A DNA stretch of 63,659 bases, the filler included, from Folioceros fuciformis (Eukaryota): assembly GCA_049999805.1 (NCBI GenBank). It is 6 parts of 6 records of this genome, joined end to end, with 100 filler letters (N's around TTAATTAATTAA, not from the genome) between each part and the next. Parts side by side here need not be neighbours in the genome. Positions count along the whole stretch, not along the records: positions 15,998 to 25,585 come from JBNGIO010004118.1; 5 more parts are not named here. One strand, given 5' to 3'. Both the position numbers and the translations under genes were made by a program. The notes below the pieces were generated by a model, which saw only the letters and a list, made by a program, of their open reading frames with translations, was not told where the DNA came from and ran no database searches. Positions 6,309 to 54,059 of the stretch are shown piece by piece. How positions within the stretch are numbered: position 1 is the first letter of the stretch; each line of letters begins with the position of its first letter.

Positions 6309-7270
6309 TCAGGTTTCTTGTTCCATTGCAGGGACCTGCCCCGTGTGCTTGCGAATAGCGGTCAGTATTCTATTCTTCTCTCGGGTGGGGAATGCCTCAA
6401 CCAGCTCCCCATTCTTGTAAAAGTGGAACAAAGGTACAGCCTGTCACAGAGGCGCACATAACTGCGTTGGTTCCGACGCATGCCATAAGAAACGGAAACG
6501 ACAACAGCGGCACCATCCCAGGGTTTCAGTCTTCATTCAGATATGACAATCATTCCCGAAGGCAAGCCAAACTTCGCGGAAACACATCCATCATACCCGG
6601 ATTTTGAAACCTGCTGCAACCTCAGACTGCTCCTCGTACTCGTCCACAACCTACAGAGCGCTCCAGTTAGCTTTCCCCTAGAATTCACGTCACTGCAAAA
6701 GTAGGGCACACCTGCCAGGAATGCTACCACTCAGTTTCGAAAGCGGCTTCTCACATTGTGCTTGAGGAAGATGACCGCTGCATCGCCGTTGCCAGCCCCT
6801 TTACAAAGCTTGATGAAGCCCTTCTCAATGTACTTGCAGCTGCCACAAGCTGTCCGAAAGAAGTCCACCACAACTAGGGAATTGTTCAACTTTGAATCTG
6901 CCAGAATCTGTTCAAACTCGCTGCTAGTTTTGAACTCCCTCACACAATCCACAGGACAGGTACCCTCATCGTCGTCATCATCCTGCAACAAGGCCCTCCG
7001 AGCTTCCTCCTCTGCCTTCTGCTTCCTATACTTCGCAGAATCCAGAAGTGCTCTAGGGCTTGATGAGAGACTGTCGCAGTCCCTCATCAAGACCTTGATC
7101 CCTCCATGTTCCATCCTCGCATCCAACCGTGTCCCCATCACTCGATGACTACGACATATTCTGGCAAGAGAAAAAGGTACGGCTTGCCGAAACCTGGGTG
7201 AACACACGGGCGTGTCTGCCTGAACAGATGAGCAACCAAAACCTAAAGCTGCCGAGGATGAGCCTGCCAT
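6309..7270 (-). CDS. Chloroplast thioredoxin-like 4 (atypical CGSC thioredoxin), 3 coding exons
   Basis: Transit-peptide-like N-terminus, then CPVDCVREF, VVVDFFRTACGSCKYIEKGF, FLKHN|VVDEYEEQSEVAAGFKIR|AVPLFHFYKNG...QET*. Confidence 0.88.
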
Positions 7271-7367
7271 GGGCTGCACCTGACGGCTCAGAAGAAACCC
7301 GAATTCAATCTACCGGATCGCCGAGCGCCTCCAACTCACTGCAGCATCGATTGCCTCGCTGCACCTG

Positions 7368-7467
7368 NNNNNNNNNNNNNNNNNNNNNNNNNNNNNNNNN
7401 NNNNNNNNNNNTTAATTAATTAANNNNNNNNNNNNNNNNNNNNNNNNNNNNNNNNNNNNNNNNNNNN
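7368..7467. other. Artificial contig linker N44-TTAATTAATTAA-N44
   Basis: Identical 100-nt spacer with stops in all six frames; the same linker occurs five times in the window. Confidence 0.97.
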
Positions 7468-11064: not shown

Positions 11065-14000
11065 CATGGTACTTAGGGCTATAGGCAAGCGACATAGTTC
11101 CCTGGTTGTCACGGTAGAGGGGTACTTAGGGCTATAGGTAAGCGACATAGTTCCCTGGTTGTTAGGGCAGAGGGGTCTTGAAAGATGTTGAGCTTCTCCT
11201 AATTCCGATAGTTGTAGGAGTTGCCATAGTCCTTGTTTGCAAGTGTGTGTCAGGGAGCAATATTTTGCTTCTGTGGAGGTTAGAGCAATCACCTGTTGCC
11301 GCTTGCTGCTCCAACTCGTGGCTATGCCTCCGAGCAAATACACATAGCTACTTGTGCTCTTTCTAACGTCCTTGTCCCCTACCCAATCAATGTCACTATA
11401 TCCTTGAAGCTGAAGGTGCTCATCTTCCTTAGTATAGGAGTCCCGTATCCAAAGTAGATCTAAGATATCTAAATATGCGCTTAATAACCTTCCAATGTTC
11501 TTGTGTGGGAGATGATAAAAACTGAGAGAGTGCTCTCACTGGAAAAGCAAGGTCTGGTCTAGTGCAGATCATTAAGTACATAAGGCTTCCAACTGCTGAA
11601 GGGTAGGGTACCCCATTTGTGTCAGGATCTGGAGTTGAGTCTTGATCTACCTTAATTAGCTTAAGGTTGACTTCCATTGGTGTGGATATAGACTTAGAGT
11701 CTTGCATCTTGTACTTAGTTCAAACTTCTTGAATATGTTTGGATTGATGTATAAATATACTTCCGGGCTCTCTATGTCTAACTATTTGAATGCCTAAACA
11801 AGAAGATAAATCCCTGCAAGTGGTCATAGCAAAACGCTTCGAAAGCATTGACCTAGTCTCTTCTAGCATGGGTTTGGAGTTGGACATTAGAACAATATCG
11901 TCCACATATACAACAAGTAGAATAAAACAACCATATGATTTTCTAATATAGATGTTGCTATCGAAGTCTAGTTTGGTAAACCCTAAGGCCTCAAAGGCTT
12001 CATCTAACTTAGAGTACCACTCCATAGCGCTTTGTTTGAGTCCATAAAGTGCTTTCAATAATTTGCATGCATTGTATAGTCGTCTGTTGACCTTAATGCC
12101 CTCGGGTATCTCCATATATATAGTGTGTTGTAGGTCACCGTATAAGAAGGCAATTTTTATATCCAGTTGCATGAGCTCATAATCATGGTGAGAGGCTACT
12201 GCTATAAGGGTCCTAAGTGATGTAATCTTGAGTATCTGGCTGAACGTTTCATTATAGTCAAACCCATGTTGTTGAGAATAGCCCTTAGCTACTAACATTG
12301 CCTTATACCTCTCTATGCTGCCGTCAGCGTTTAGCTTGATCTTAAATGTCCATTTCGGGCCCACTAATTTTCTGTGTGGAGGTAAAGTGGTGTTAGTCCA
12401 AGTTTTGTTCGCCCTAAGTGAGTCCAATTCTGATTTAATAGCAATTTTCCAATTTTTGCTTTCGGAACATGTAATAGCCTCATGATAAGTTGCAGGTACA
12501 AATTGATCAATAGCTGCAGATAAGCAATGAGCTAAATTCGTTTTAGGGTCCCTCCAATTGGATGGAGAATACCTCCGTATGGTACCTGCACTCGTACATT
12601 GTGATCGTCTGCCGGGCCTCATATCCGCGTGTGTTATCCTCGTCTTGTGAGTTGTCTGGCCTGAGATGAGCGTTGTTTCCTGAGCCTAAAACATCTCTGC
12701 ATTGAGAGCGGGAAGATGCGTCCATCTTCACGCTCTGGTGCTGAGGATGGAGGTTTTCGTCCTCCGGGCTTCCAATGCCAAAGGGGTCATCCTCCGCACC
12801 GCTATCTCCTGCAGATTGTAGGTGATGGCCAAGGCTAGAGGCCGCACGCTGCGATGCAGTTGAGGAGGCGAGCTCCTCCTCTTCGAAATTGCCGAAGGTG
12901 AAAGAGTCTGCAGGTACGGGTTGGTGATGGAGATTTGGAACTGGTTGGGCAGGCTGTTGTGCTGCAGGTTGGATAGGTTTTGCCTGATTTGGTTGTGGTG
13001 TGGGTTGTGCAGGAGGAGCTGTTCCCATGGAAATATCGTCGTCCCTGTCTACATGATCTGTAGGGAGGTTGGATGCTCCCACTGCAAATGAGCCCTGCAT
13101 ATCTTCTAAAAAAGTGACAACTCGTGAATGGGTCACTTTGTGAGTCTGTGGGTGCATGATTTTGAAGCCCTTGACGCCGTTGGTGAAGTCGAGAAAGATG
13201 TGTTTACTTGCACGATCCTCGAACTTGGTTCTTGTGGCTTTAGGTACATATGCATACACGGGAGAGCCAAACACTCTGAGGTTGGATAGATCAGGCTTGT
13301 GTCCCGTCCATGCTTCGTAAGAAGTTTGTTGTGGCAAAGTAGCTGTTACAAATCTGTTGATGAGGTAAACTGCATGGGCCATTGCTTCTGGCCAATATGT
13401 CTTGGGCAGGTTGGCATGGATCAGCATGGTCAGTCCATAATCTTGGACTATTCTGTTCATACGTTCTGACACCCCGTTCTGCTGAGAGGTGTGAGGTGTG
13501 GTCACCTGTCTATTGATGCCGTATGTCTTGCAGAATTGCAAGAAGGCATTGGATCCATATTCTCCTCTTCCATCTGAACGGAGTCTTAGGAGTTTCTCTC
13601 TTGTCTGTGTTTCAGCCCAAACTGTGTATTCTTAGAAGCAGGTGAGGGCTTGAGATTTGTGCTTTAGCATATACAGGATGGTGAACCTGCTCATGTCGTC
13701 TATGACCAACATGAAATATAAGTATTCGTGAATGGATCTCTTGAAGGGTCCACAAATGTCTGAGTGTGCTAACTCTAGTTGTCTTATGGATCTGCTGGTG
13801 GATTTAGGGAAAGAAGTACGGTGGCTCTTCCCAAGCGAGCATGCCTCACAGATGCCGAACTCCTCCACATTTGTGAGTGTAATGCCTTTAGCTGCGCCTG
13901 CTATAACCATTTGTTTTATCCTTTGTATCCCCATATGGCCAAGTCTTGCATGCCATAAATATGATTTGTTGTGCTTGGCTGCGGCAGATAATGAAAGAAG

Positions 14001-15353
14001 GGGTTATGACTTCTGTCCATGTTGAGATGATACAGGTCATCGTTCTTGACGTCTCCAGTGGCGATTAGCTCTCCTTGAGGTGTCTCCACAATGCAATGGC
14101 CTTGTCCAAAACACACATAGTAGCTAGATTCATCAATTTTACGGACTGAAAATAGGTTTTTGGTTAGTCCTGGGTCGAGTAGGACGTCTGAAATTTGGAG
14201 TGTGCTTCCTGGCTTTAGGTTTAAGTCTATTGATCCGTGTCCTTCTATGGTGTGCCTTGTGTCGTCACCCAGGCTAACGAAATGAGGAGGCTTAGAGGGT
14301 GTGAAGTCTTTGAAGTATTCTCGATGTGGGGTCATATGCTGTGATGCCCCTGAGTCTATGTACCAGGAGTGCTGGCCTTGAGCAGTTAGGCATGAGGCAA
14401 CCAAGGCTGATGGTGATGAGTCTAACCTGGTGTTTTGTAGGCATAGGAATGCCTTTGAATGTCTTTTCATGGTTAAAGCTAACTGGCCTGATGCTTCTCC
14501 TCTATTTCTTCTTTGATTGTTGTCTGCCATGCGTTTCCGGCACTCCTCATAAGTGTGGCCCGGAATCTTGCGGTAGCCACATATTTTTCTTCAACTTGGG
14601 TTGAAGCTACCACGTCCTTTAGAATAAGAACCTATGCCTCTGTGTTGCTGTTGGCCTCTATAGTTGGGCTGGCCACGACCTCGAGCTCTACCTCTACCTG
14701 TGAAGTAGGCTGCACTTGATGATTTCTCCGCCGAAGGAGGTAGCGAATACTTTTCTCCTTGCTTCTTCTGTCAATATTGCACTGATCACTTTGTTAATCG
14801 TGAGTGGGGCTACACCTTGTAGGGACTGGACTACGGAGGTCCATGATTCAGGTAGAGTGGAGAGCAGTATTGCTGCCATTAAATCTTCAGAGATGGTGAA
14901 GCCGCATGATTGGAACTTGGCATTCCAGCTCCTAAATAGCATGGTATGTGCGTCCACTTGGTCAGTTTCTGATATTCTTAGAGAGAAAACTTTTTTGATA
15001 GTGTGCACTGTGTGCATGATGTCTGTTGCAGCGTATACGTCGCGGAGCTGTTGCCATGCCTTCGCGGCTGAATCTGTCCCTTCCAATTGCTGTACGTTTC
15101 TTGATTTCATGCCTTGTATGATGACGTTCCTGGCTTGCTGGTTTTTGTCATCCCATGCTTCCTTTTGAGCATTTGTGGTGTTGGGACCTGAGGGGCGTGT
15201 TGTGATCACAGGTGGTGACCCGACTCCTCCTACGAACTCCCAGAACTTCCTCTCTTTGAGGATATTTGTGATTCTGAACTTCCATATGGGGCAGCTATGT
15301 TGTTGCCCATCAAATCTATCCTCTTTAGACAGTGAGATATTGGAGGCTGCCAT
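11060..15353 (-). mobile_element. Decayed Ty1/copia LTR retrotransposon internal region (gag-PR-INT-RT-RNase H)
   Basis: Gag (14694-15353), protease WYIDSGASQHMT, integrase CEAC/HSDICGP/QQNGVSERMNR, RT YKAMLVAKGYSQ...LYGLKQS...VYVDD and RNase H SWSSKRQ...STEAKY. Integrase precedes RT, the copia order. Several stops and frameshifts are present. Confidence 0.95.
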
Positions 15354-15897
15354 TTTGTGTTGCTTATTTCTGTTGTGTGTGTGTGTGAGTAGATGCTAAC
15401 GTGCGTGGCTATTTGCTGTTAGCTTATGTCTCGAAGACAGATTCCTTAGGAGGCAAGTAGTGTCCAAGTGCATGGTGAGTAGAACTCTCACTGTTTTGGG
15501 TTCGTTGGTGTTTCTGGGATTTTGCAGTTGGTTAATTTTGTGGATTACTGACATCTCTAATCCTTTGATTTCAAGTTGTGGAGGATTCCTGAAGAAATTG
15601 TTCTTTCTAGATAGGGTGTCTAGATGAATGTGAATCCTTTGTTTGATGTAGTCGACTCTGCAAGGGATGACCACATCGAAGGATGTGGTGTATTCATTGA
15701 TCATTGTTGATGAATAGGAAGGAAACCTGAATGTAGGAGAGCTTATTCTGTAAGGTCTGAAAATCCCCTTAATAGCAGCTCTTCCCCTAAGAGGAGAAGA
15801 ACACCATAGACTTTGGACCATGCATAGACTAGCAGGTCCTCGTGGGCTTGCTTTAGAAAAGCCTGTTTTCTGTGGAATCTTTGAAATTCCAGATTTT

Positions 15898-15997
15898 NNN
15901 NNNNNNNNNNNNNNNNNNNNNNNNNNNNNNNNNNNNNNNNNTTAATTAATTAANNNNNNNNNNNNNNNNNNNNNNNNNNNNNNNNNNNNNNNNNNNN
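15898..15997. other. Artificial contig linker
   Basis: N44-TTAATTAATTAA-N44. Confidence 0.97.
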
Positions 15998-15999
15998 CG

Positions 16000-17874
16000 T
16001 TGATGGAGAATGTGTGCGACTCGCGCTGGACATATTCCATCTTCTGGCAGCTGACGGGGACGGGCATAGCGCCCGGGCAGCGGACGTTGGGCTGGGGGGA
16101 CGGGGAATTGCGGCGGAAGGAGTCCGACATGCACACGGAGCGGACGGTGGACAGCGAGCAGCAGGCGGCCAGGATCCGGGTTCTGCAGGAGCTGGAGGCG
16201 CTTGTGAGCCGCGAGTCGCGGGATACCAGCCAGGATCTGTCGCAGGATTTTGTGTCGGATACGGAGTGGTTCTTTCTGTTCAGCATGTTGCAGACTATTC
16301 CGGAGGGGAGCTGCGTGCCCGGGAGGGCTCTCATGAAGGGCGGGTTTGAGTGGCTCAACGAGCCGGCCAACCCGGAGCTGTGTGAGAGGGCAACGTTTGC
16401 GGGAGGGGCGGGCTTGCAGACCATTGTGGCTCTGCCCGTGTCGCAAGGGGTTGTGGAGCTTGGTTCTACCGAGCGTATCTTGCCGGATGTGGGCTTTATT
16501 GATCGAGTAGAGCATCTGTTCGAGGGGGGGGATTCTCGCTCGGCCTGGCCGGTCGGGGACTACCACTTGCCGCTGGCTCATGAGGAGGTGGAGACGCTCT
16601 CGTATTTCAACTCGGACTACTTTTGGAACGGGAATGGCTTGCCTCCGGCCATGGATCACCCTAAGGACCACGACTACAACCAGCAGCTGCAGCACCAGCA
16701 TCAGCAGGTCAGGCAGTTTCCGGCTCAGCAACAGGCTCCTGCTGACGACTTTCTTGTGGAGAATCTTGCCTTTCTGAATTCCATGGGCGTGGACATCCCC
16801 ACCTTCCACCACAACGCCTTCGCCATGCCGGAGCAGAAGGGATACGGTGTGCCGCAGCCTAGGATACATGTTGAGATACAGGCTCACACTCAGATCCCGC
16901 TGGGGGCTGGTGAGATTTTGAACCCGACAGCGGCTGTGGTTGCCCGCGCACAGCCGCCGCTGTCGCTCAAGCCTGAGGTTGCACCTGTGCAGAATGGGCT
17001 GCACATGTTGCGGGAAAAGCCTCAGCTTGTGAAGCAGCAGCAATATTCTGATGGTCTGGTGCTCCCCTCTGCCACCAACATGGGATCCAGCATTGAGCCG
17101 GAGCAAGAAATGGACTCTGAGGCTGAGGTTTCCTTCAAGGAGTCTGAGGAGAGCAGCCTCAACAATGGTCAGAAGCCACCACGCAAGCGAGGACGAAAAC
17201 CGGCTAACAACAGGGAGGAGCCTTTGAACCATGTGCAAGCTGAGAGGCAGCGTCGTGAGAAGCTGAATCAGCGCTTCTACGCTCTCAGGTCTGTGGTGCC
17301 CAATGTTTCCAAGATGGACAAGGCGTCTTTGCTAGGTGATGCGATTGCGTACATCAAGGACTTGCAAACCAAATTGCAAGAGTCGGAGGTCAAGATCAAG
17401 ACTTTGCAGTCACAGGCACCGCCGCAGATGGACAAGGCAGCCATGGAGGCAGCCTCCAAGGGTGATCAGGAGGCTGGGAATTCTGGAGGAGGGCCCGGTG
17501 GAAGGCTGATGTGCGTGAGCAATCGGGTTCCACCAGATCAGAAGCCGTCCATTCAGGTTGACATATGTGGTCTGGAGGTGTTTATCAGAGTTCGGTATAA
17601 ACGAGAAGCGTATCCCATCACACAACTGCTGTCAAGCTTGCAAGACTTGCAGTTGGACGTGAGGGATGCAAATATTTCCACTGTGGACGGCTCCATGGTT
17701 CATCACGTTGTGTCAGCCAAGTTGAAAAAGGAGCATGAAGAGATCAAGAAAGAAATGTTTCTGGAGGCTCTGGACAGAGCATTTCAGTTTACTCCTTTGC
17801 CTACAAAGCCAGAAAATGGGAGCATTGGCAACAGCAAGCAACCTAGTACAAGATTTGCAGAACCTCAGAGGTAG
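16000..17874 (+). CDS. MYC-type bHLH transcription factor (subgroup IIId/e, MYC2-like), intronless, probably 5'-truncated at the contig edge
   Basis: bHLH-MYC_N motifs [22 protein letters not shown] and GVVELGS; b[60 protein letters not shown]-like C-terminus. Confidence 0.93.
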
Positions 17875-18729
17875 ATCTTCTGACAGCGAACGTTAAATGG
17901 TGTCCTCCCGCTTGTACACGTAGTGCCTTGTATGGTCAGGTTGGGTGCCGAAGTTAGCTGTCGGTAGAAAGATGGAGTTGACCCTGTCTCTTGTATGCTG
18001 CAGGAGGACTGTACACTAAGCATACTCTGTAAGATGGGTGGGGTAGCCTCCGTTTAGGGGTGCCTGCAGAGGGTGAGGTGAAGGGCGTGTGCTTCTCACG
18101 CTTGTATCCCTCTTACACCTACTGGGATGCAATTTATTCAGGGTACGTGGTAGGTAGCAGGCCTGTCAACTTGTAAATCATCTTGTTGCTCCTCTTTGTT
18201 TGAGAGGAGGAAAGTTTGTCAGCCTTCGAATTAAATTGTACTTTGCCTCTCTTGTACGTGTGCAACAGATTCATCAACTAGGGGAAACCACCTATAAGCG
18301 GGGGCACATGTGCCAATTCATGTACAAAGGGGCTAAGCTGGGGGATATGCATCAGTTGGTGGTTTGTGGGCATTTCTCTACTTATTCAAGGCTTTATGTA
18401 AGACAAGCTTTTGGCACATCTAGACAATTATATGGAGGATAGACTGTTGTACTCAGGGTCGGAGCGTGATCCAGGCCTGTATAACAGAAAGCGCTGCTAC
18501 TTCTTGGAAAGTGACCATGTAACGTAACACAAATCTGAATATCGGCTGGTTAGTTGAGACGGAGCAATTTTCAGGTGGGGGTGGCAGGATGGTGGATGAA
18601 GCCGATGGGTGGTTTGGCGTCGTGGGACAAGGTTCTGTTCCTGTGCCATGAAATGCCACCCACAAGTTTCAGTCTAGGATCAGACCCACGTGGATCTTAA
18701 CGATGATGGAAGGAAAAACTTGAATCCAT

Positions 18730-21488
18730 TTATTCCCGATTGTCACCCTGAGTCTCGTGAGTCACAAAAGGGTTTCCCATCCTTGCTCCCGTTGTCAATT
18801 GGAATGGCGGACTTTGCAACGCGAGTTGAGGTGGAGATTCGGTCGTATATTGCCATGCCGGCTCGCTCACTTGCAGCCGCTCCGACAAGACCCTTGTCAC
18901 GACCGTCATGGTCGGGCGCGCATGACGGAGAGTGTCCACGCAAGCCGCGGCCAGGCGCAGCAACAGGTGCAGGTCGGGCGCATAGAAAACGCCCTCCAAC
19001 CGAGGGTCGACGACCGAGTCCGCCACCGCCCGCCTCTCTAACCAGGGCGCCGCCCAGGTGGTGAGCAGGCAGCCGTCCCGAAGCGCCGGTCTCCCGCTCA
19101 CCAGCTCCAGCAGCAGCACTCCAAAGCTGTAGACGTCGCTCTTGGCGGAGCACAACCCCGTCTGCTCGTAAGCCGGGTCGATGTACCCGGGGGATCCCCG
19201 CACTAGCGTCACCTGCCCGGACTCCGACGTGTTGTCGCCACCCGACGTGGCCATGGACGAGGCCTTGGACGTGGCCTTGGACAACCCGAAGTCCGCCAGC
19301 TTCGCCACGCCGCACTTGGACAGCAGCACGTTCGCCGACTTCACGTCCCGATGCAACACCTGCGGGTTGCACCCGTGGTGCAAGTACTCCAGCGCGCTCG
19401 ACACCTGCAGCGCCACCTTCATCCGGCACCTCCACGGTAGCACGTTATCCGGCGTGTTGTTATGCAGCCGGTCGAACAGGCTCCCTCCCTCCAGGAACTC
19501 GAAAACAAGGGGCCACGGCACTGGAGTTTGGCAATCCAATGTACTGCAGTCAGTCGTCAAAGACGTTGGCATGGGAGGGAGGAGGTACACAAGGTTCAAG
19601 CGGCGTTTCTACCATCGCTCCCACCTATTCCTTACTTACCGGCTTCGGTGCAGTAGCCGATGAGATTGACGAGGTAGCGGTGATGGATCCGCATGAGAAT
19701 GGTAGCTTCCTTGACGGACACGTCCGCCTCGGCCTTGGCCTTTGGCTTGTTGGGGTCCACCCGACTCACCTTCACGGCCCCCAAGCTCCCGTCTGGGAAG
19801 GTCGCCCTGTAGACGACGCCGTAGCCCCCGGCTCCCACCCTGGTCCTGAAGCCGGCAGTGGCCGTGTCCAGCTCCTTCCATGTGAAGGGGCGCATTTTGG
19901 ACACGCAGTCGGTTCCCGCGTCCGAGAGCGGGGGTTTGGGTTTGGATGCGATGCTTCGGCAGAACCACATGGCACACCACGCCACGCCCAGCAGCAGCGC
20001 GCTGAGAGAGACCGGGATTATCACAGACAGCAGCAGGCTGTGGCGGGTGGCGGGGGGACCGGGACCAGTAGCAGTCGTAGTCGTACTAGGGTCCGGGCCG
20101 TAGGACACGACGGCGTTGAGGGTGACGTCGTCGATGGCGGGCCCGCACTGTGAGTCTGTGTCACCCTTGGAGAAGGCGATGACAACGGGGTTGTCCAGCG
20201 TCGTGAGGTAGAGCTGGCAAGATGTCCAGTGCATGGTGGTGGGGGTGTTGTTTCCGGCGTCGTAGGTGAAATCGGTGTCGCCTTGCGGCACGGCGTTGTA
20301 GAGCTGCACGCTGAGGTGGCGCAGGTTGGAGTTGGGGCAGAGGTACTGGGGGGGCGGGTGGCCGGACAGCTTGAATGAGAGGGAGAAGTTGGAGCTAGGC
20401 GGCAGGGTCAGGGTCTGCGCGATGACCGCCGACTCGTAGCCGAACCAGCCGCAGCTGAGGTGGATGGAGGTGTCTCCACTGGACGCGGTCCATTTCAACT
20501 GCTGCACGTACTCGATGCACATTTTCTGCAGCGGATCTCCTTCCTGGTCCGAGATGGACGAGTTTACGTGCAACACCATCTCCGCGTCCCGCACCACCTG
20601 CCATGAGCCGATGGGGAAGAGCGTGAGGCGGTCCGCGATGGTGAAAGATCCCTCGCCACTTTCCAGCCGCACCGTGGCATGCTCGAAGCTCCCGTCCCGG
20701 ATGATGTTGATAGTAGGGTCGGGATCACTCGCAACCGGCACTGCCACTGCGTCGAGCACCTGCAATCGCTGCACACGCACACAACGCTGTGAATTCTCAC
20801 GAATTCCGCTTCCATGCAACGCCTCGTGATCGGGACGACCGGCGCTCAGTACCTGCTGCGTGGAGGAATAGGCGGCGTAGCTGTAGGAGTCGACAGGCAA
20901 GACAATGAAGTAGGAGGTGAGCGAGCCCCTGGGTTGCAGAAACAGGTGGTACTTCCCTCTCGCAGCAGTGCTGTTTCCCGCGATGAACAGCGGCTGAGGC
21001 CAAGGGATCATGCTCTGCACCGTTCCATCATCCAGCAAGTGCCACTGCTGCGCCTGCAACACCGGGTTGCACGCCCGGAGCTCGAGCCGGAAAGGAAACG
21101 GATCGTCCTTGCCATAGGGGAGACGCACCCCGGTGATGCACACGGCGGGGCCGCTGCTGTTGGCGTGATCCTGCATCATGATGGCCCCGGTCTGGCTCGC
21201 CATCGAATTCCCGAATCCGGACAAGAAGGTCCACACTTCGTTGGACTCGAACGCCCAGCAGGGGTAGATCCCGACCTGGAGCTTCTGGTAGGTAGTGAGG
21301 TTCGCTTGATGCGGCCCCGTGAATGCGTTGAGGCAGAGGCGGCAGATGGGGAGCCCGGGAGACTGCTCCGGCTTCCCTACAATGATCCATGACCGCTGCA
21401 GCCCGTCCAAGGCCACGCTCACCCCGCTCCCCCCTCTCCCAACACAAATCAGGAGCAGTAGCAGCAGAGCCGCGGCCCAGCTCCGCAT
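18730..21488 (-). CDS. Receptor-like Ser/Thr kinase (RD type): signal peptide + ricin-B-like lectin + DUF642/choice-of-anchor-C-like domain + TM + kinase; one intron at 19521-19639
   Basis: Signal MRSWAAALLLLLLICVG; TM LLLSVIIPVSLSALLLGVAWCAMWFC; kinase GAGGYGVVY, AVK, HRDVKSANVLL, DFG, GSPGYIDPAY and SDVYSFG. A GTAAGT...CCAG intron joins YCTEA to VPWPLVFEF in frame. Confidence 0.88.
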
Positions 21489-21490
21489 CC

Positions 21491-21673
21491 CTACGCCGGT
21501 TCGCGTAATGCGGTCCCGCGAAGGCGTTGAGGCAGAGGCTGCAGATAGGGAGCCCGTCCGTCTCCTCCGCCTTCCCCTGGACGATCCCGGTGCTGCCCGT
21601 CCGAGGGCGCGCCGGGCTCACCCCGTTCCCAGCGCACAGCAAGAACAGCAGCGCCGCGGCCCAGCTCGCCATC
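21491..21673 (-). pseudogene. Partial tandem duplicate of the RLK N-terminus
   Basis: MASWAAALLFLLCAG...GKAEETDGLPICSLCLNAFAGPHYAN matches MRSWAAALLLLLLICVG...GKPEQSPGLPICRLCLNAFTGPHQAN, and is out of frame with the full gene. Confidence 0.8.
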
Positions 21674-22804
21674 GTGCCCAATCCTACGCCTAGCAGCGCG
21701 GCCCACAGGCGGAGGCGGGATCGTCCAGGCCGTCGTCTGTCTCGGTCCCAGAGCCCGGCCGGCAGGAGCGATATACTCGAGGCTCCTTTGTTGCTGTGTG
21801 GCCAGCGTCGATACAAGCTCATGGTGCCCGGCACAACATGTGTAATTCCACTGCACGAGGCTGGTATGCTGGTAGACAGAAACAGCAATGCTTCATGACC
21901 AGCATTCACAAGGCGGGTACTGTCATTCGGTCGGGTTTGGGCAGAGGAATACAAGGCTGGTCCTTCTTCTCCTTCTTCCGCTCCAATTCCTCCCTCCACA
22001 CATGCGGTTGCCATAGACACCACCGTTCAGGAACCTGCGCTGGCGTACTGCAGTGTAGTGGCTTTGCTTTAGGGTTGGGCAGAACTTTGGTCCTCGGAAG
22101 GTAGGTGACACTCTCGTCTTCATCTAGAAGATCAACGTCGTTGATCAACAAAACTGGCTTGATCCTCCACCGCTTTGCAAGAGTCGGGGCTTCCGTTTCT
22201 GCACCTGGGCCAGAAACTCCAGATCCATCCCCCAGCCCAATCAGGACGGCTCACAGGCCAAGCACATCCTAAAATGCTCACCTCCCGAATGCTACGTCAG
22301 TGTTCGCCCCGCACTTTCTCACTCATGCCAACCATGGTTCTGCAGCTAGAAGTCTGGAAACCATCGCTTTTGTAATGCCGGCGGCTGGGCTGGGAGTGAT
22401 CTACCTCATGATCTGATTTCTGTATTTCTATTTGCGTAGTTATATATTTTGTTTCGAATTACATTACCTTCCATCGCACACTCAACATGAATAAAATTAA
22501 TTTATTAATTGAATGATATAATATTATTTATTTATTATATGGAATACAAATACGAATGTACGGTGGACGGTTATGCTTTTTTTTCTCCTCAATTGTATAT
22601 TGTACACGAATATTCTAGGATATCTCTTACATACATACTAGTTTTAAGGTTCATGTCACATTATGAAATGTCCTAGGTACGGACTTTTTTTTTTTCTTTT
22701 GTCTTTGCTACCGTGTGGACCTATTAGGAACCATAAACTTTCTTTCTTCTTGGTACACAAGATTGGTGATGTTATTTTTCTTCCCTCCTCCCACATCATG
22801 TAGG

Positions 22805-23780
22805 CAATCGTCGGACCTCGGTCTACACTTGCATATTGTCCCACCGGTCGGACCTCGATCTGCACTTGCACATTGTCCCACCGGTCGGACCTCGATACAC
22901 TTGCATATTATCCCACCAGATTGCGTTGACTTTGCAAATTGTCTTGCAAGGTGGATCTTGGGGATTGTTCTTACATAGTGAGTTGTTGCAAATTGCCTTG
23001 CAAAGTGGGTAGAACTGGGGGATTGTACTTGCACAGTAAGTTGTTGCATATTGGCTTGCAAAGCGAGTAGAACTTGGGGATTGTCCTTGCACAATAAGCT
23101 ATTGCAGATTGCCTTGCAAAGTGGGTAGAACTTGGGGATTGTCCTTGCACAGTGAGCTGTTGTAGATTGGCTTGCAAAGTGGGTAGAACTTGGGGATTGT
23201 CCTTACACAGTGAGCTGTTGAAAATTGGCTTACAAAGCGGGTAGAACTTGGGGATTGTCCTTACATAGTGAGTTGAAGATGGTTTATCGTACACTATGTT
23301 ATAGATGGTCCACGCACACTGCATGGCATAATGTCCCTATAAATTGCCCTACAACTGGCCCCATAGATTGCCATGCAGATTGCCAATTGTTGTGGGTGTG
23401 TTGCATTGGAGATTGTAAGACCCTAAAGCCTTGCAAACCAAGTGGAACTTGCATATTGCCCTTACAAACTACGTTGGCCTTGTAGATTGACCTTGCAAAC
23501 CATGTAGAACTTGTAGATTGTCCCAATAGACTGCGCTACACTAGCGTAGCAGATTGTCCTTGTAGATTGTGGTGACCTTGCAGATTGTCCTTGCACAGTG
23601 GGTTGCAAATTGTCCTTGCACAGTACCTTGCAAATGGTCCTTACATAGTGGGTTGCAAAGATTGTCCCAACACACTGAGTTGCAAATAGCCCGTACAAAG
23701 TGCATTGTAGATGGTCCATGCGCATTGCGTTGCACAGTGCCCTTCAGAATTGCCATGTAGCTTGCCCCCATATTGCCTTG
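22805..23780 (+). repeat. Compound degenerate minisatellite: ~37-nt units, then ~58-nt units (TTGCAAAGTGGGTAGAACTTGGGGATTGTCCTTGCACAGTGAGCTG...), then decayed variants
   Basis: Recurrent ttgcaaag/attgtccttgcaca motifs read directly. Confidence 0.8.
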
Positions 23781-23850
23781 TACATTGCAAATTGTTGTGG
23801 GTGTCACTCTTTCACACACCCTACGGTGAGCATCTAGAGGGAAGGATTGG

Positions 23851-23996
23851 AGAGTGTGATTTCAGATAAGGGTCCTATGCAGTTGGGCTTGTAGATCGAA
23901 GAGTGTGATTTCATATAAGGGTCCTATGCAGTTGGGCTTGTAGATCGAAGAGTGTGATTTCAGATAAGGGTCCTATGCAGTTGGGCTTGTAGATCG
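23851..23996 (+). repeat. ~49-nt tandem repeat x3 (AGAGTGTGATTTCAGATAAGGGTCCTATGCAGTTGGGCTTGTAGATCGA)
   Basis: Direct reading of the sequence. Confidence 0.9.
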
Positions 23997-24783
23997 TCTT
24001 AGGGGTTGCAAGAGTAGTGTGGAGATGTTGACCTTCGTCGTAGATTTTCTTGTAGATGGCAAATCCCGATTGTCTCATAGATGGCCTTGCACTATGTAAT
24101 CGTATAGAACAGAAGCAACCTATACACAAGGATTGCAGATGCAAGTTGTTTTGAAGGTTGTGGCTACTAGGTTGTTTTGCCTGCTAGGTTTGCGAGAAGG
24201 AGGTGAGGCAGCACNNNNNNNNNNNNNNNNNNNNNNNNNNNNNNNNNNNNNNNNNNNNNNNNNNNNNNNNNNNNNNNNNNNNNNNNNNNNNNNNNNNNNN
24301 NNNNNNNNNNNNNNTTTTATCCTTATATCACATCTCAAATAACATATCACAAATCACCCTCTAAGTGCTTTAAAAAATGATACCCGCTATTCCCCTCTAG
24401 TCGTTAACACGGATGTTTAAATCAAAGATCTGGAAAGCAGCTCAAGGGCAACGCCCAATTCTTCAATACAACACTTTTATGAAAACCAAAATTTCCACGA
24501 TGAACGCTGACGACTGTTGCGAAGGACGCAAAAACAAGGCACCTTCTACTCACGGCTTCATCTACAAAACAATCACATAGCATGACACCGGCAAACGAAC
24601 GTCTTCCGATCCCACTTAGGTTGAAGGAATATTTCATAAATAAATGAGCTACAATCTAACTCCAGATTTCCTCCTGCCTGATTCAGCCGTCCAGAAAATG
24701 CAATTGGCTTACTCCAATCTCAAGAGGGGCGAACACTACGAGGAGAACAATCAGAGGCCTGTTCTCCACGTGATTCAGCATTG

Positions 24784-25585: not shown

Positions 25586-25685
25586 NNNNNNNNNNNNNNN
25601 NNNNNNNNNNNNNNNNNNNNNNNNNNNNNTTAATTAATTAANNNNNNNNNNNNNNNNNNNNNNNNNNNNNNNNNNNNNNNNNNNN
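25586..25685. other. Artificial contig linker
   Basis: N44-TTAATTAATTAA-N44. Confidence 0.97.
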
Positions 25686-31388: not shown

Positions 31389-32843
31389 ATGGCAACTGTG
31401 TCCGCCTCGATCTGCGCAGCAGCTGCAGCTGTTGCCTGCACCAGGGCGCCTCCTTCGAGTGCTTCTCCTCCCGGGCTCCACAGCCGGGGCCGCGGCGGGG
31501 TGCTGCACTGGAGGAGAAGCAGGAGGACACTGGAATTGTTGCATTCACGACGCCATCTTTTGTCACGGAGAATTCCAGGACTGCCACACCTTGCTGCTCC
31601 TCGGATTCTGAGAGCTCAACTCAAGTCGGATTTGGACGAGTCCTCTCCACTGCCCTCGACAGCACCAGCATCTGGAGAGAGTGACACCGCGCTGCAGGGT
31701 CTGGTTGGGGAGGATGCCGCCGTGTTCGAGCTCAGCGAGCAGAAGACATCTTCTTGGGTGTCTTTCACCATCGTACTCGTTGTGGTCCTGGGAGCCTTGT
31801 ACGTGTTGTGGATGGATCCTTCTACGGGGTTTGGGACCAGCTTCGTTGATGCCCTGACATCGTTGTCGGACGACCCTGAGGTGAGGAGGTTTGCGCGTCA
31901 AGGCCACCACACCTGTGTCTCTGTCGTTTCCAAGCTCCAGCTCATATGAACTTTGCTCTGCACTGCTCCAGGTGGTGATGCTGGCCATTCTCTTCGTATT
32001 CGCACTGGCCCATAGCGGACTTGCTAGCCTGCGTGATGTTGGAGAGAAAGCGATCGGTGAACGCGCATACAGGGTGCTCTTCGGCGTGGTCTCGTTGCCT
32101 CTTGCAGTATCTGCTGTGGTACGATGTAACTCATGCTATTCAGGATTGAGCTCAAGTTTTGCCCTCACCTCCTTTCCTCACCAGGAACCGCCGCATAACA
32201 TTGATGCCAGGTGTACTTCATCAACCACAGGTACGCGGGTGCACAGCTGTGGCAAGTGCGGACGGTCCCTGGTGTCCATGAACTGGTCTGGCTGCTCTCC
32301 TTCGTCTCCTTCTTTTTCCTTTACCCATCCACCTTCAATCTCCTCGAGGTCGCAGCTGTGGATAAGCCCAAAATGCACATGTGGGAAACCGGTATCATGC
32401 GGATCACAAGACATCCACAGGTGGGTTTTCCTCCTGCTCTGCTGCCTTGTTTCCCAATTTGCCAACATGTTCTCCAAACTTGACGAATGCTTAGATGTTG
32501 TACTCAGATGGTGGGGCAGTTCATATGGTGCTTTGCGCACACTCTGTGGATAGGCACTTCCTTCACCTTGGTCACCTCCCTTGGGCTTTGCGCGCACCAT
32601 CTTCTGGGAGTCTGGAATGGTGACAGAAGGCTAGCTAAACGCTATGGCAAGGCTTTTGAGGAGGTGAAGCGCCGCACCAGCATTGTGCCATTCGCTGCTA
32701 TCTTCCATGGCAGGCAAAAGTTACCACAGGACTATTACAAGGAATACTTGAGAGTGCCTTATTTTGTCATCGCTGTCCTGACTGTCGGTGCCTACTTCTC
32801 TCATCCTTTGCTCCAGGCCGGAAGTGCGTACCTTGGATGGTAG
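31389..32843 (+). CDS. Z-ISO: 15-cis-zeta-carotene isomerase, chloroplastic (NnrU domain), 4 exons
   Basis: LVGEDAAVFEL, HSGLASLR..GE..IGERAYRVLF, YFINHRY, LYPSTFNLLEVAAVDKPK, ITRHPQ and HHL.GVWNGDRRL. Confidence 0.94.
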
Positions 32844-35824: not shown

Positions 35825-36960
35825 CTACAATTTGGAGTAATTGTAGACACCACGGCCCGTCTTGCGACCCAGCCAGCCAGCGTCCACATACTTGGCGAGG
35901 AGGGCGCAGGGCTGGTACTTGGCCCCCAGCCGGGACTGCATCACCTGCATGATGGCCAAGCAAGTGTCCAGACCCACCAGATCTGCAAGAGCCAGGGGCC
36001 CCATGGGCTGGTTTGTTCCCAGCACCATCCCCTTGTCGATGTCCTCCGCTGAGGCTATGTCCTCCATCAGGGCGTAGAATGCCTCGTTGATCATGGGCAT
36101 GAGGATGCGGTTTACTACGAATCCAGGGTAGTCCTTAGAGCAGGTCACTGTCTTGCCAAGCCTGTCATGCAAATTCATCACCCCATGGAGATAGCACCAG
36201 GCTGAGCTGAACTATTAAAGCTGGTGTTGAGAAAGAGAGATGAGCTGACGAACCAAGCGTGCGCTTGCTTGGCGTACCTCTCAGCCAGGGACTTGATGGT
36301 GTCGAACACAGAGTCCTCTGTGGCAAATCCTCGGATGACCTCCACAAGCTGCATGATCGGCGGGGGGTTCATGAAATGCATGCCGATAACCTGCAGGCAG
36401 TGCAGGGTGATAGTCAGCACTGGAGCGAGGGAAGGGCAAGATTGGTGTCCACAGGAAGGGGAGCGAACCTGAGAAGGCCGCTGCGTTGCAGTGGCTAGGC
36501 GCGTGATGGAGATGGAGCTGGTGTTGGATGCCAGTATGGCGGCTGGTTTTACCAGCTTGTCCAGCTCCGACAGAATCCCCTTCTTCAGCTCCTCGTTCTC
36601 TGACACCGCTTCGATGACCACGTCTGCAGAGCTCATGTCCGCCAAGGAGGTTGTGGTCTTAACCCTGGCGATGGTCGCGTCCGCGTCCCCCTGCACTTCA
36701 GCCCGCGAAGCGCATGAGCAACCACACGACCATGCCATGGTGCCGCCTGCGGCATCTGCAACTCTTACCTGCGACAAAGTTCCTTTCTTCACAAACCGGC
36801 CCAACGATTGGGAGATGGACTTGAGCCCCCGCCCAAGAGCTGCGGAATCCAAATCCGCCATCACCACTTCGATTTGCGCCGCAGCTGCCAGCTGAGCAAT
36901 TCCTGCACCCATTTGGCCCGCACCAACCACTCCCACCAGCCTCACCGCAGGAGCGGCCAT
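35825..36960 (-). CDS. 3-hydroxybutyryl-CoA / 3-hydroxyacyl-CoA dehydrogenase, with C-terminal SKL peroxisomal signal
   Basis: VGVVGAGQMGAGIAQ, VIEAVSEN, LASNTSSISIT, IGMHFMNP, PGFVVNRIL, PMGPL.LAD.VGLD and GWLGRKTGRGVYNYSKL*. Confidence 0.93.
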
Positions 36961-39527
36961 TGCAACGGTAGCTCCGATTCTGCTATGCTAATTCTGCGCT
37001 CCACCAGCTAAATATGTAGCAAGCCTTAGGGATCTCGGAAATCTAGCGAGACTGCACCTGCACCTGCACCTTCTCCGCCTCGGTTGTAGTCTCGGAGTCC
37101 TTCCCTAAAGCTAGGAGCAGCAGTCCCAATTCCACACTCATGACTCCACATGCGGCCGGAATTGGTATCTGCAAAGCCTCTGCGTCGGGTGGCTTGGGTC
37201 GCAAGAGAATGGAAAGAGTCCCCTGGTTCGTGCAGTGTCCATCTCACACCCTGCAACGTGAACCGCCAAGTGGATTAGACAGTACGGCGATCACTTCCTC
37301 TGGATGGCCGCATACTCAGCATGTATGCAATGCAACATCTCTGCTAATGACGTCACATGATCAGGGATGTCTTACACTTACGGAGAGACGTGGACACTAC
37401 AATTTGCAGAGCTACCGGCTGTCCAATCCGGAATCCGCTCTCACAAAGCTGCACTGGCTTCAGATCGCCTTCTGATCTGAAGCCGCTCTCTGACACTATT
37501 GGTTCTCAAGCTAGGCCCGGTTTTGACCAAGAGGATAAGATGCGGTGAAGAGGGATAAAAGGAGCTCCAGCGGGGACAATGACAACATTCTTCGGCAAAT
37601 CACACAATCGAAAGAGCCTTATATCTCTGCGGCGGAACAAGACCATCCAGACAGTGCGGCCTTGATCTTCTGCCCGGCGCATATCTGCCGCCATTACAGG
37701 GTGAGGGCTCGCTCCCCACGTAGGCTGGATGTCAGCAACTCATTTTTCTCCTCAGCGAAGGTTCCACCAGAGGCACCTAATACTGCGCGGAGTTCATCCA
37801 GCTCCGTTAGCATATCACCATCACCTCTTGGACCGTCTTGCAACAACAGGCACAACCTAATTGGGCAAGGGAAGACCGAGATCCTCTAGGGTAACCGAAC
37901 CGTCTCAAGCACGAGCGTCAGTAGAGTGAGTGTGTTCGGCCTGCTGCAGTGCAACATGCTGCCTTTTGCAACATTCGTAAGTACAGTACAAAGAAAAGGC
38001 GTCCAGAGTCCGCACAATCTACAAAACCGTCATCCGCAGTACGGCATGACCAAGGAAAGGTTCAATCTCATCTTCCTCCCCCATTTCCGAAAGCTGTTCC
38101 CGGAAACTCTTGTGCTCTGCCAGGCGAGGCCCCTATTCCTCTCGAAACTAGCCTACATCCCACACTCCTTGGACAAGTTGGCGGTGCACCAGATGGTCAG
38201 ACTGTTGAACAACCTTTCTTCACGTAACGGTAAGCGAATTGCCTGTGGTCCGAGGTCGTGAAACCACAGGGAACAAGAAGATGGCCAGCAGACCGCTCGT
38301 GCCACGTACACACAAGATTTTCGGATCTCAAGAAAAGGCAAGCTCCTGACACAGCCAGCTTCGTGCTAAACTCTGTCATCCAATTCGTATGCTTGCACAT
38401 CCATATGTCTGTATCACCCGGTGACGGTGAGCTGAGTCAAGGTATCAAATGACGGTGGAAACTAGCGTCTCTGGATGCCCAGTCCGCCTCTATGACCACC
38501 AGGCCCACCAGTTACAACCTCCCGTAATTCCGCACGGAGTCCCACGACGAGCGTGTTCTACTCGGGAACTTTAGGTCCAAGACTCCTGAAAGCGTGCACC
38601 TGTATATGGCGCTGACAAGCTCCCCGGTCACAAATACCTGCGCTCCAGCATACCGTTTGTCTCCGAGCGGATGAAGACAAGCGCACCAAGAGAGTACTGT
38701 ACAGGGCTCCGGCTCGGACCAGGGCCTGTCTTGAAATGGCATACCTGTCGTGGCACTCCTCATTTTGATTGTGTGAAGCGCATGTAGACGGATCTCAAAA
38801 AAATCTTCTGGAGATCACCTCTCGAACATGTGGAGATAAGAGATAGACGACCCTCAAACCGAAGGTTGCCCTTGGGATGCACCCAACAAACAGACCACCA
38901 CTGCTACATGGCCAGCCTACGGGCTCTTGACCGACAGTCTGGACATCTGGAGGGGTGTTCGTGGCTCGACCAAGGAACTTCACATCTGGACCACACTACA
39001 GAAACAGCATTTGTAGATTGCTAGCCTGCTGGACTTCGACGAAGGCTCCGAATATCTGGACCAGTCTCAGTTACCAAAATAGACAATTCCTGAAACTTCC
39101 ACAAGGATCACGACACTGACTCAACCGAAACGCCCACCGACGACAGATGCTCACTGAACCGAGGGTTCTCCTCATCTGCAACTTCAGTCTCCTGCTCCGT
39201 CTACAGAACCCTTAGTCAATCAATCAGTCCCAGTCACGCAACACACAAGACATGGCTGTGTTGGAGAAGGGGTACTGACTTCGCAGGTCAGCAGAAACCT
39301 TGACATAAGCAAGACAACAGAAACGGTACATACAAGAGCGTTTAGAGCATAGATATCCTTACGGACTTCAAGACAGCTGAAACATTTAGTCCAAACAGTT
39401 GATTCCTCCTTCCACAAACGGTCTTATCAAGGTCGGAGTCTACGGACTGTACCTGAATACGCTATAGGGTAGACAGGGGATTGCTTTGCCTCCCAAGAGC
39501 TTTGTTTGGATGGGCCATCCACTCAAA

Positions 39528-41523: not shown

Positions 41524-41623
41524 NNNNNNNNNNNNNNNNNNNNNNNNNNNNNNNNNNNNNNNNNNNNTTAATTAATTAANNNNNNNNNNNNNNNNNNNNN
41601 NNNNNNNNNNNNNNNNNNNNNNN
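41524..41623. other. Artificial contig linker
   Basis: N44-TTAATTAATTAA-N44. Confidence 0.97.
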
Positions 41624-53959: not shown

Positions 53960-54059
53960 NNNNNNNNNNNNNNNNNNNNNNNNNNNNNNNNNNNNNNNNN
54001 NNNTTAATTAATTAANNNNNNNNNNNNNNNNNNNNNNNNNNNNNNNNNNNNNNNNNNNN
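53960..54059. other. Artificial contig linker
   Basis: N44-TTAATTAATTAA-N44. Confidence 0.97.

Follow-up and report, generated by a model that had tools for sequence, protein, structure and literature searches.

Few classes of plant receptor kinase that monitor glycans or the cell wall have been studied, namely the WAK, CrRLK1L/malectin-like and LysM kinases and the L-, G- and C-type lectin kinases, and the available part of a 2025 account lists the lectin receptor-like kinases (RLKs) as L-, G-, C-type and LysM (PMC12355970). DUF642, a domain with which this study is concerned, is otherwise known in plants only from secreted wall proteins. The available text of PMC13516882 ties these proteins in seed plants to pectin methylesterification and calls the family spermatophyte-specific; the Arabidopsis DUF642 protein BIIDXI binds the pectin methylesterase (PME) PME3 directly, and the rice OsDFOT proteins interact with PMEs. 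The gene described here lies on the minus strand of a 63,659-nucleotide stretch (filler included; hereafter the window) of the Folioceros fuciformis assembly GCA_049999805.1. It is a three-exon nuclear gene encoding an 851-residue type I receptor of the RLK/Pelle group, in which a ricin-B/CBM13-like module and a DUF642 domain form the ectodomain and are followed by a Ser/Thr/Pro-rich stalk, a transmembrane (TM) helix and an RD kinase. Taken as a whole, with the proposal that the receptor senses glycans included, this reading is considered likely.

That DUF642 can occur together with a kinase has already been listed in print. In the available text of PMC12512272, of 2025, DUF642 is placed among the unclassified RLKs and RLPs (receptor-like proteins) of ferns only, within the genome set of that study, and a single sentence, silent on any ricin-B module and on structure, expression and function, mentions an InterPro DUF642-kinase from Taxus chinensis (A0AA38CBH3). 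A search of the literature for 'PF04862' with 'kinase' returned the domain-kinase pairing in this fern paper alone, and a full-text search found nothing that combines 'ricin-B' with 'DUF642'. The available main text of metaRLK 2.0 (PMC13174206) contains none of the words 'DUF642', 'ricin' and 'trefoil', and its supplementary tables may differ, while the available part of an account of ricin B architectures in 38 genomes, Ginkgo included (PMC6362431), mentions combinations of a lectin with a 'galactose-binding domain'. A sequence-only reading of this DNA had described the architecture as apparently unreported. As far as these searches reach, this holds for the three-part architecture and its biology but not for the DUF642-kinase pairing, and Ginkgo proteins with all of the domain calls are present in a public proteome. 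The novelty is tempered further by the documented diversity of RLK ectodomains outside angiosperms. With the window gene, a lectin-type receptor kinase variant that is listed in print but unstudied gains a new and divergent representative.

Gene structure and transcription

The coding sequence runs on the minus strand from the first in-frame ATG, at 21488, to a TAA stop that ends at 18730. The open reading frame (ORF) scan returned two minus-strand stop-to-stop frames, of 661 codons (19632..21617) and 292 codons (18730..19608), which are joined over a GTAAGT..CAG intron of phase 1, the splice linking GYCTEA to (V)PWPLVFEFLEGGSL. One public run (143,725 records, 48.6 M letters) contained 0.88 of the sampled words of 18600-21750, and a single contig of 5337 nucleotides from this run matches 18600-19520, 19640-20768 and 20853-21672 of the window, with 1 mismatch in 2870 aligned bases. 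The contig skips the intron within the kinase, plus a second segment of 84 nucleotides that reads CT..AC on the plus strand, and hence GT..AG on the strand of the gene, and is in frame. Aligned with the window, it gives the three exons of Table 1 and a spliced coding sequence of 851 codons without an internal stop, with a GC content at third codon positions (GC3) of 0.825. If the 84-nucleotide intron were retained, the frame would be kept and 28 residues (VLSAG...CVRVQ) added to the linker between the two ectodomain modules. The sequence-only reading had recognised an intact gene running from a signal peptide through ectodomain and TM helix to an RD kinase, which agrees with the ORFs, the kinase intron, the motifs and the hydropathy; its splice within the kinase is confirmed by the contig (joint 19520/19640), and ectodomain and kinase are spanned by this one contig. 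Its placing of the whole ectodomain in a single exon, on the other hand, is overturned by the additional intron.

The record and letter counts of the run, together with a contig that lacks two canonical introns of one gene, lead to its being read as spliced mRNA, and the locus, a real plant nuclear gene, is most likely transcribed. Two further public runs contained next to none of the words of the stretch, and no run is on record as RNA. The one mismatch, an A for G at 20351, would change Pro352 to Ser within the DUF642 domain; the public run is therefore not exactly the assembled sequence, and the difference is probably allelic, between sequenced individuals. The contig also extends 2467 nucleotides past 18600, toward a convergent bHLH gene. 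An artefactual fusion of two genes was ruled out by the one contig bridging all parts and by the same architecture in Ginkgo. A plus-strand ORF at 19065..20153 was set aside as a gene, as it is antisense inside the GC3-rich coding region.

The 5' leader of the gene is a diverged tandem copy of its own beginning, with a repeat unit of ~185-200 nucleotides (region 21489-21700). The duplicated segment spans the ATG, the signal peptide and GLPIC.LCLNAF.GPH.AN; in tblastn, residues 20-73 match the upstream copy at 21630..21469, and the direct repeats D1/D4 are spaced 184-199 nucleotides apart across the gene start. With an ATG of its own, at 21672 and in a strong context (A at -3, G at +4), the upstream copy opens an ORF of 214 codons in another frame, which overlaps the start of the receptor and ends at 21028. 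The contig ends exactly at 21672, and so takes in the upstream ATG. By eye, a GT past the upstream copy and an AG within the downstream copy might splice in frame; the contig represents the unspliced form only. Also upstream of the receptor gene are a 37-nucleotide tandem repeat at 22810-22883 (two copies, 92% identity) and repetitive reading frames at ~22700-23340, in an AT-richer stretch. No paralogue was found in the window by tblastn with the 879-residue two-exon translation, in which the 84-nucleotide segment is read through, the only further match being the 5' partial duplicate.

Ectodomain, topology and kinase

The second module of the ectodomain is a single DUF642 domain, as had been proposed from the sequence. 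It scored above the Pfam gathering cutoff of 27 bits for DUF642 (PF04862) both within the exon ORF (35 bits, E 1.5e-8) and as a domain piece (37.9 bits, E 2e-9); compared with PDB sequences, the DUF642 part alone matched nothing at E<=1. An AlphaFold model built from a 28-sequence alignment had predicted local distance difference test (pLDDT) values, in blocks of 10 residues, mostly of 75-98, falling to 38-59 where the window protein has an insertion not seen in Ginkgo. The top modules returned by Foldseek for this model were the carbohydrate-binding modules (CBMs) CBM16, CBM4-2 and CBM61, with TMt of 0.62-0.70 and E of 2e-6 to 5e-5. With VIA-align, the model was superimposed on a xyloglucan-binding CBM4-2 at Z 15.6 and a root-mean-square deviation of 2.5 A (151 of 166 residues aligned), on a galactan-binding CBM61 at Z 14.9 and on CBM16 at Z 13.5-13.7, with 25% identity for the last. 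Several of the nearest CBM structures were solved with bound oligosaccharides. In the model, the fold of the DUF642 domain is the beta-sandwich of bacterial CBMs, which matches the galactose-binding-like jelly-roll expected beforehand.

The N-terminal module is probably a divergent beta-trefoil, ricin-B-like at the level of the family, to judge from comparisons of sequence. Two sub-repeats can be recognised, C52..C77..W86 and C117..C140..W149, with Cys-Cys spacings of 25 and 23 and a Cys-Trp spacing of 9 in both, which is the pattern of ricin-B sub-domains. BLASTP aligned the module collinearly with the N-terminal modules of two Ginkgo proteins (E 7e-6 for residues 33-88, and E 7e-4), and the columns that are invariant among the three proteins include 5 Cys and 2 Trp of the module. 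When the three N-terminal modules were run together as a profile against the PDB, 13 of the 37 listed sequences were at E<1e-3 (best 1ggp_B, 1.5e-6); these 13 comprise only ricin-type lectin B chains, GalNAc-transferase lectin domains and xylanase CBM13, with no unrelated sequence until E 0.095. The Ginkgo rows may account for most of this signal. Additionally, and as a lead only, a protein-language-model search of a protein atlas placed the Ricin_B, RicinB_lectin_2 and CDtoxinA clusters first (scores 0.93-0.95), each of its ten best named clusters sharing a family or clan with Ricin_B. The motifs quoted in the sequence-only reading (CLNA, VGIYPC, NEVW, VCIT, LELRACNPVLQAQQWHLLDDGT, NIIRDGSFE, SWQV, IEYV, IAQT, LSF and CGPAIDDV) are all present in the translation; its ricin-B-like repeats stand by way of the Ginkgo homologues and the three-sequence profile, but not on the window module taken alone.

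The topology, called from a hydropathy plot alone, is type I, with a signal peptide and a single TM helix that separates the ectodomain from the kinase. Hydrophobic windows of 19 residues form just two clusters in the spliced protein, starting at residues 3-9 and 454-467, with basic residues after the second. The ectodomain contains six N-x-S/T sequons. The kinase domain carries the motifs GAGGYG524, AVK543, HRDVK645, DFG665 and RPTM790, and is of the RD type since HRDVK is present; its activation segment is long and Ser/Thr-rich. The closest kinases in the PDB are SYMRK (5.3e-36), BRI1, PBL2, FERONIA, BIK1, BAK1 and CERK1, ahead of IRAK1/4.

Legume-lectin, GNA/B-lectin, C-type, LysM and malectin families gave no match at E<=1 on the exon ORFs, where only DUF642 and kinase families were found, and the scan of the domain pieces at E<=10 added Ricin_B (0.17) and nothing else. 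A place in one of the classical lectin-RLK classes was ruled out, as none of their defining Pfam families was matched, and the protein is distinct from these classes, as had been thought.

Table 1. Positions of the features of the receptor gene in the window
Feature	Position	Strand	Basis
Exon 1: start codon, signal peptide, ricin-B-like module, residues 1-212	20853..21488	-	ORF; contig piece 20853-21672; spliced model
Intron 1: 84 nucleotides, GT..AG, in frame	20769..20852	-	contig joint 20768/20853; sequence
Exon 2: linker, DUF642, Ser/Thr/Pro-rich stalk, TM helix, juxtamembrane, kinase N-lobe	19640..20768	-	contig piece 19640-20768; spliced model
Intron 2: 119 nucleotides, GTAAGT..CAG, phase 1, in kinase domain after GYCTEA	19521..19639	-	sequence; contig joint 19520/19640
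Exon 3: kinase C-lobe, C-terminal tail, TAA stop	18730..19520	-	ORF; Pfam Pkinase E 2.2e-24; contig piece 18600-19520
5' leader: diverged tandem copy of the first ~185 nucleotides of the gene, ~80% identity with indels	21489..21672	-	tblastn, DNA alignment, direct repeats
Predicted signal peptide, residues 1-20, MRSWAAALLLLLLICVGRGG	21429..21488	-	Kyte-Doolittle windows >1.6 starting at residues 3-9
Probable ricin-B/CBM13-like module, residues ~33-200	20889..21392	-	two recognisable sub-repeats; third degenerate or absent
Single DUF642/choice-of-anchor-C domain (CBM-like beta-sandwich in the model), spliced residues ~229-435	20100..20720	-	Pfam PF04862; AlphaFold; fold search
Predicted TM helix, spliced residues ~456-478, then CRSIASKPK	19971..20039	-	Kyte-Doolittle maximum 2.49, window start 457
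RD protein kinase domain, RLK/Pelle type, split by intron 2	18871..19850	-	Pfam; motifs; PDB relatives

Relatives and competing readings

By sequence, the window protein belongs to a small un-named family with two members in Ginkgo biloba, where the same architecture, sought in other genomes, was found. Gb_21948 (813 residues) and Gb_14982 (827 residues), both uncharacterised proteins of EukProt, show the same collinear arrangement of signal peptide, Ricin_B_lectin, DUF642, TM helix and kinase. Identity between the window protein and the Ginkgo proteins is 24-28% in the ectodomain, and 37% (BLASTP) or 41% (tree-alignment columns) in the kinase. Landmarks common to them are SWI.G, P.C..LC, VG.YPC, E.W, CGP.IDD, LGAVKV and GYxDPxY. 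The Ginkgo kinases read HSD and are non-RD, whereas the window kinase reads HRD, and the window protein has several extra insertions, one of ~22 residues inside DUF642. The two Ginkgo proteins are 42% identical to each other and carry the same four Pfam families. Gb_21948 passes the Pfam Ricin_B_lectin threshold (32.1 bits vs 29), PF00652 is precomputed on both, and their scores for the bacterial choice-of-anchor C family of NCBIfam (TIGR04362) are 73 and 74.5 bits. The occurrence of the same architecture in two Ginkgo proteins speaks against a chance fusion, and its retention at such low ectodomain identity is an argument for an old combination that has been selected. In Gb_21948, a low-complexity insertion of ~45 residues (residues ~553-600) follows GYC.E, at the very place of intron 2 in the window gene, and looks like an intron left unspliced in the annotation; Gb_14982 looks mis-modelled in the kinase N-lobe.

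Other relatives share the DUF642 domain. In a HMMER search of 1.84 billion representatives, 38 proteins reached E<=1e-3, and not one reached E<=1e-30. Pfam scans of 13 of these 38 found DUF642 in all 13; one, Gb_21948 itself (P0003, E 8.9e-11), has Ricin_B and a kinase as well, and the 12 others are without a kinase. The best sequence match for the DUF642 part was P0001 (E 1.1e-16). Ten other matches were looked up: four carry the name 'choice-of-anchor C domain-containing protein', one cluster goes by 'hypothetical protein' or DUF642, and five are unnamed. They stem mostly from JGI/IMG, ENA and other run-derived collections, on contigs of 1-14 kb, and none of the ten bears a plant name. Of 8000 candidates scored against the ectodomain (region 21-480) in a word-indexed protein search, none came to E<=1e-3. 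Repeated with the three-sequence alignment, this kind of search gave 113 proteins, all kinase-bearing and with no PF04862 or PF00652 seen; the kinase part dominated here, and the result is uninformative on the distribution of the ectodomain. Gb_21948 as a query matched just itself and Gb_14982. On these comparisons, the window protein is missing from the searched collections and very divergent from its nearest relatives.

Several observations weigh against the reading of this gene as a receptor with two carbohydrate-binding modules. Those on the N-terminal module would suit a protein that is a DUF642 receptor kinase only, in which the N-terminal 170 residues would be either a spacer containing Cys or the degenerate remnant of a beta-trefoil, one that does not bind sugar any more and perhaps serves in folding, oligomerisation or contact with a protein ligand; this is possible, if doubtful. 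Alone, the module scored 12.5 bits (E 0.17) for Pfam Ricin_B_lectin (PF00652) against a cutoff of 29, over a match of just 26 residues at the QQW motif/LELRACNPVLQAQQWHLLDDGT stretch, and it is accordingly called ricin-B-like and not filed as a member of PF00652. Among PDB sequences the module alone found nothing lectin-like (best Hsp110, E 0.53), and AlphaFold twice gave low pLDDT from a 3-sequence alignment, of 27-55 by block within the full ectodomain and 32.8 on average for the module alone. Cys and Trp landmarks are missing from the third sub-repeat, there are several insertions relative to Ginkgo, whose ricin-B modules are less degenerate, and the Asp of C-L-D, presumably the sugar-binding residue of the ricin type, is N and T in the CLN and CIT of this module. 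Such a reading is nevertheless hard to square with a family profile whose matches at E<1e-3 are exclusively ricin-B/CBM13, with a Ginkgo homologue above the Pfam threshold and with a C..C..W spacing that occurs twice, and many functional R-type domains retain one or two active sub-sites only. Other points concern the rest of the protein and the transcript. The alignment to PF04862 spans profile positions 37-156 of 157, and TIGR04362 was matched at 48 bits (E 1.6e-12), short of its cutoff of 120, so that the domain is filed under the Pfam family and not under the bacterial NCBIfam subfamily. The APE-equivalent of the kinase is PAY704, with Ala in place of the APE Glu (PQY and PHY in Ginkgo). 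In a tree of 15 kinases (14 references, a haphazard set), the window kinase falls in a polytomy and is not joined to the Ginkgo pair with support; by path length, this pair is nearest, followed by THESEUS1-like kinases. Homologues with the full architecture number two, both from Ginkgo, and the run that yielded the contig is flagged 'RNA?', its library type not being on record.

The tandem duplication raises the question of whether the receptor is made. The locus could be transcribed yet decaying, with a strong-context ATG and an out-of-frame ORF placed first and little or no receptor produced. The contig reaches that ATG, the overlapping ORF could depress translation of the receptor, and the ectodomain is just 24-28% identical to that of Ginkgo. 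Such decay is nevertheless judged very unlikely, given that the 851-codon frame is open, the kinase motifs are intact, GC3 is like that of an expressed gene, both introns are cleanly removed and the landmark residues common with Ginkgo are kept. Moreover, the end of the contig is not a transcription start; transcripts may begin at or downstream of 21672, which would leave 21488 as the first usable ATG. Another reading keeps the receptor and changes its ligand, from a glycan to a protein such as a pectin methylesterase, its inhibitor or a secreted peptide, the lectin-like folds acting as protein-binding scaffolds; the binding of BIIDXI to PME3 and of OsDFOT proteins to PMEs speaks for it (PMC13516882). 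This is unlikely in view of the closest folds to the DUF642 model, which are sugar-binding CBMs, several of them with bound oligosaccharides. CrRLK1L malectin-like domains bind RALF peptides as well as pectin, which counts in favour of a protein ligand, whereas an interaction of DUF642 with wall polysaccharides in vitro, reportedly the subject of work by Vazquez-Lobo et al. in 2012, as its title has it, counts against one.

On the preferred reading, that of a glycan-sensing receptor, the ectodomain would bind a polysaccharide or glycoconjugate that comes from a microbe or from the wall of the plant itself. Once the ectodomain is occupied or clustered, the kinase would be activated through phosphorylation of the activation loop, as in other lectin-type and wall-sensing RLKs. 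The balance is slightly in favour of at least one of the two modules binding a glycan. Pectic, galactan or hemicellulosic epitopes of the wall, or a microbial glycan, are suggested as candidate ligands, the wall epitopes on the strength of the fold neighbours, CBM4/61/16, and of what is known of seed-plant DUF642 proteins in the wall. A broader proposal, improbable as it stands, is that RLKs with ricin-B-like and DUF642 modules are an old land-plant class of wall or glycan receptor, independent of WAK, CrRLK1L and the classical lectin RLKs. This class would have been retained in the present plant, ferns and gymnosperms and lost in angiosperms, and may be the membrane-anchored source or sister of the secreted seed-plant DUF642 proteins, the domain itself descending from bacterial choice-of-anchor-C proteins. 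Through such a receptor the cell would be informed of the state of the ligand, a pectic, galactan or hemicellulosic epitope.

Genomic surroundings and comparison with known systems

The convergent neighbour of the receptor gene, at 15997-17874 (+), encodes a MYC-type bHLH transcription factor (bHLH-MYC_N, E 8.1e-39; HLH, 6.2e-13). An ACT-like domain in it is below cutoff, its N terminus abuts a gap, and its stop lies 855 nucleotides from that of the receptor. The five gaps of the window (7368-7467, 15898-15997, 25586-25685, 41524-41623 and 53960-54059) each consist of 44 N, TTAATTAATTAA and 44 N. This form of spacer has stops in all six frames, as in strung-together contigs, so that the pieces of the window may owe their order and adjacency to the joining; the receptor gene itself is contained in one piece (15998-24214). 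A Ty1/copia-type retroelement occupies ~11723-15395 (-); its gag (Retrotran_gag_2), Pol beta-barrel, SH3-like domain and RVT_2 lie in different frames. Other ORFs have Pfam matches to thioredoxin at 6734-7309 (-; E 1.2e-5), to NnrU at 31885-32550 (+; 6.3e-6) and to the NAD-binding domain of 3-hydroxyacyl-CoA dehydrogenase at 36181-36987 (-; 1.1e-48). Pfam scans of the other ORFs of the window found no second receptor kinase, and the context is ordinary for a plant nuclear genome.

Among described proteins, the fern and Taxus 'DUF642-kinases' resemble the window protein in combining PF04862 and a kinase on one polypeptide, in occurring outside angiosperms and in having an unclassified RLK family, according to the available text of PMC12512272. 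The family formed by the window and Ginkgo proteins probably corresponds to them.

The secreted seed-plant proteins BIIDXI, TEEBE and OsDFOT1 share the Pfam family of the DUF642 domain, and presumably its CBM-like beta-sandwich. They are apoplastic and are linked in the literature to wall polysaccharides and pectin methylesterification. Secreted DUF642 proteins of seed plants carry two tandem DUF642 domains and are soluble, without a TM helix or kinase, whereas the window protein has one DUF642 domain fused to a receptor kinase. The gene model provides clean construct boundaries (ectodomain, spliced residues 21-455; DUF642, residues 229-435), and these could help to show what the ligand of DUF642 is.

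The best sequence and structural matches to the window's DUF642 are bacterial, namely choice-of-anchor C/DUF642 proteins and CBM4, CBM16 and CBM61, and the bacterial TIGR04362 profile scores above Pfam DUF642 on this domain (48 vs 37.9 bits). The bacterial relatives lack a kinase, being proteins of the surface, secreted proteins or glycoside-hydrolase modules, and identity in the structural alignments is 10-25%.

The classical lectin RLKs and the malectin-like CrRLK1L proteins follow the same logic as the window protein, with a carbohydrate-binding-type ectodomain, one TM helix and an RLK/Pelle kinase, and the window kinase is similar to those of FERONIA/THESEUS1 and SYMRK. The difference lies in the folds of the ectodomain, ricin-B-like and DUF642 beta-sandwich in the window protein, and its gene, backed by a spliced contig, exemplifies a class that combines two other carbohydrate-module folds.

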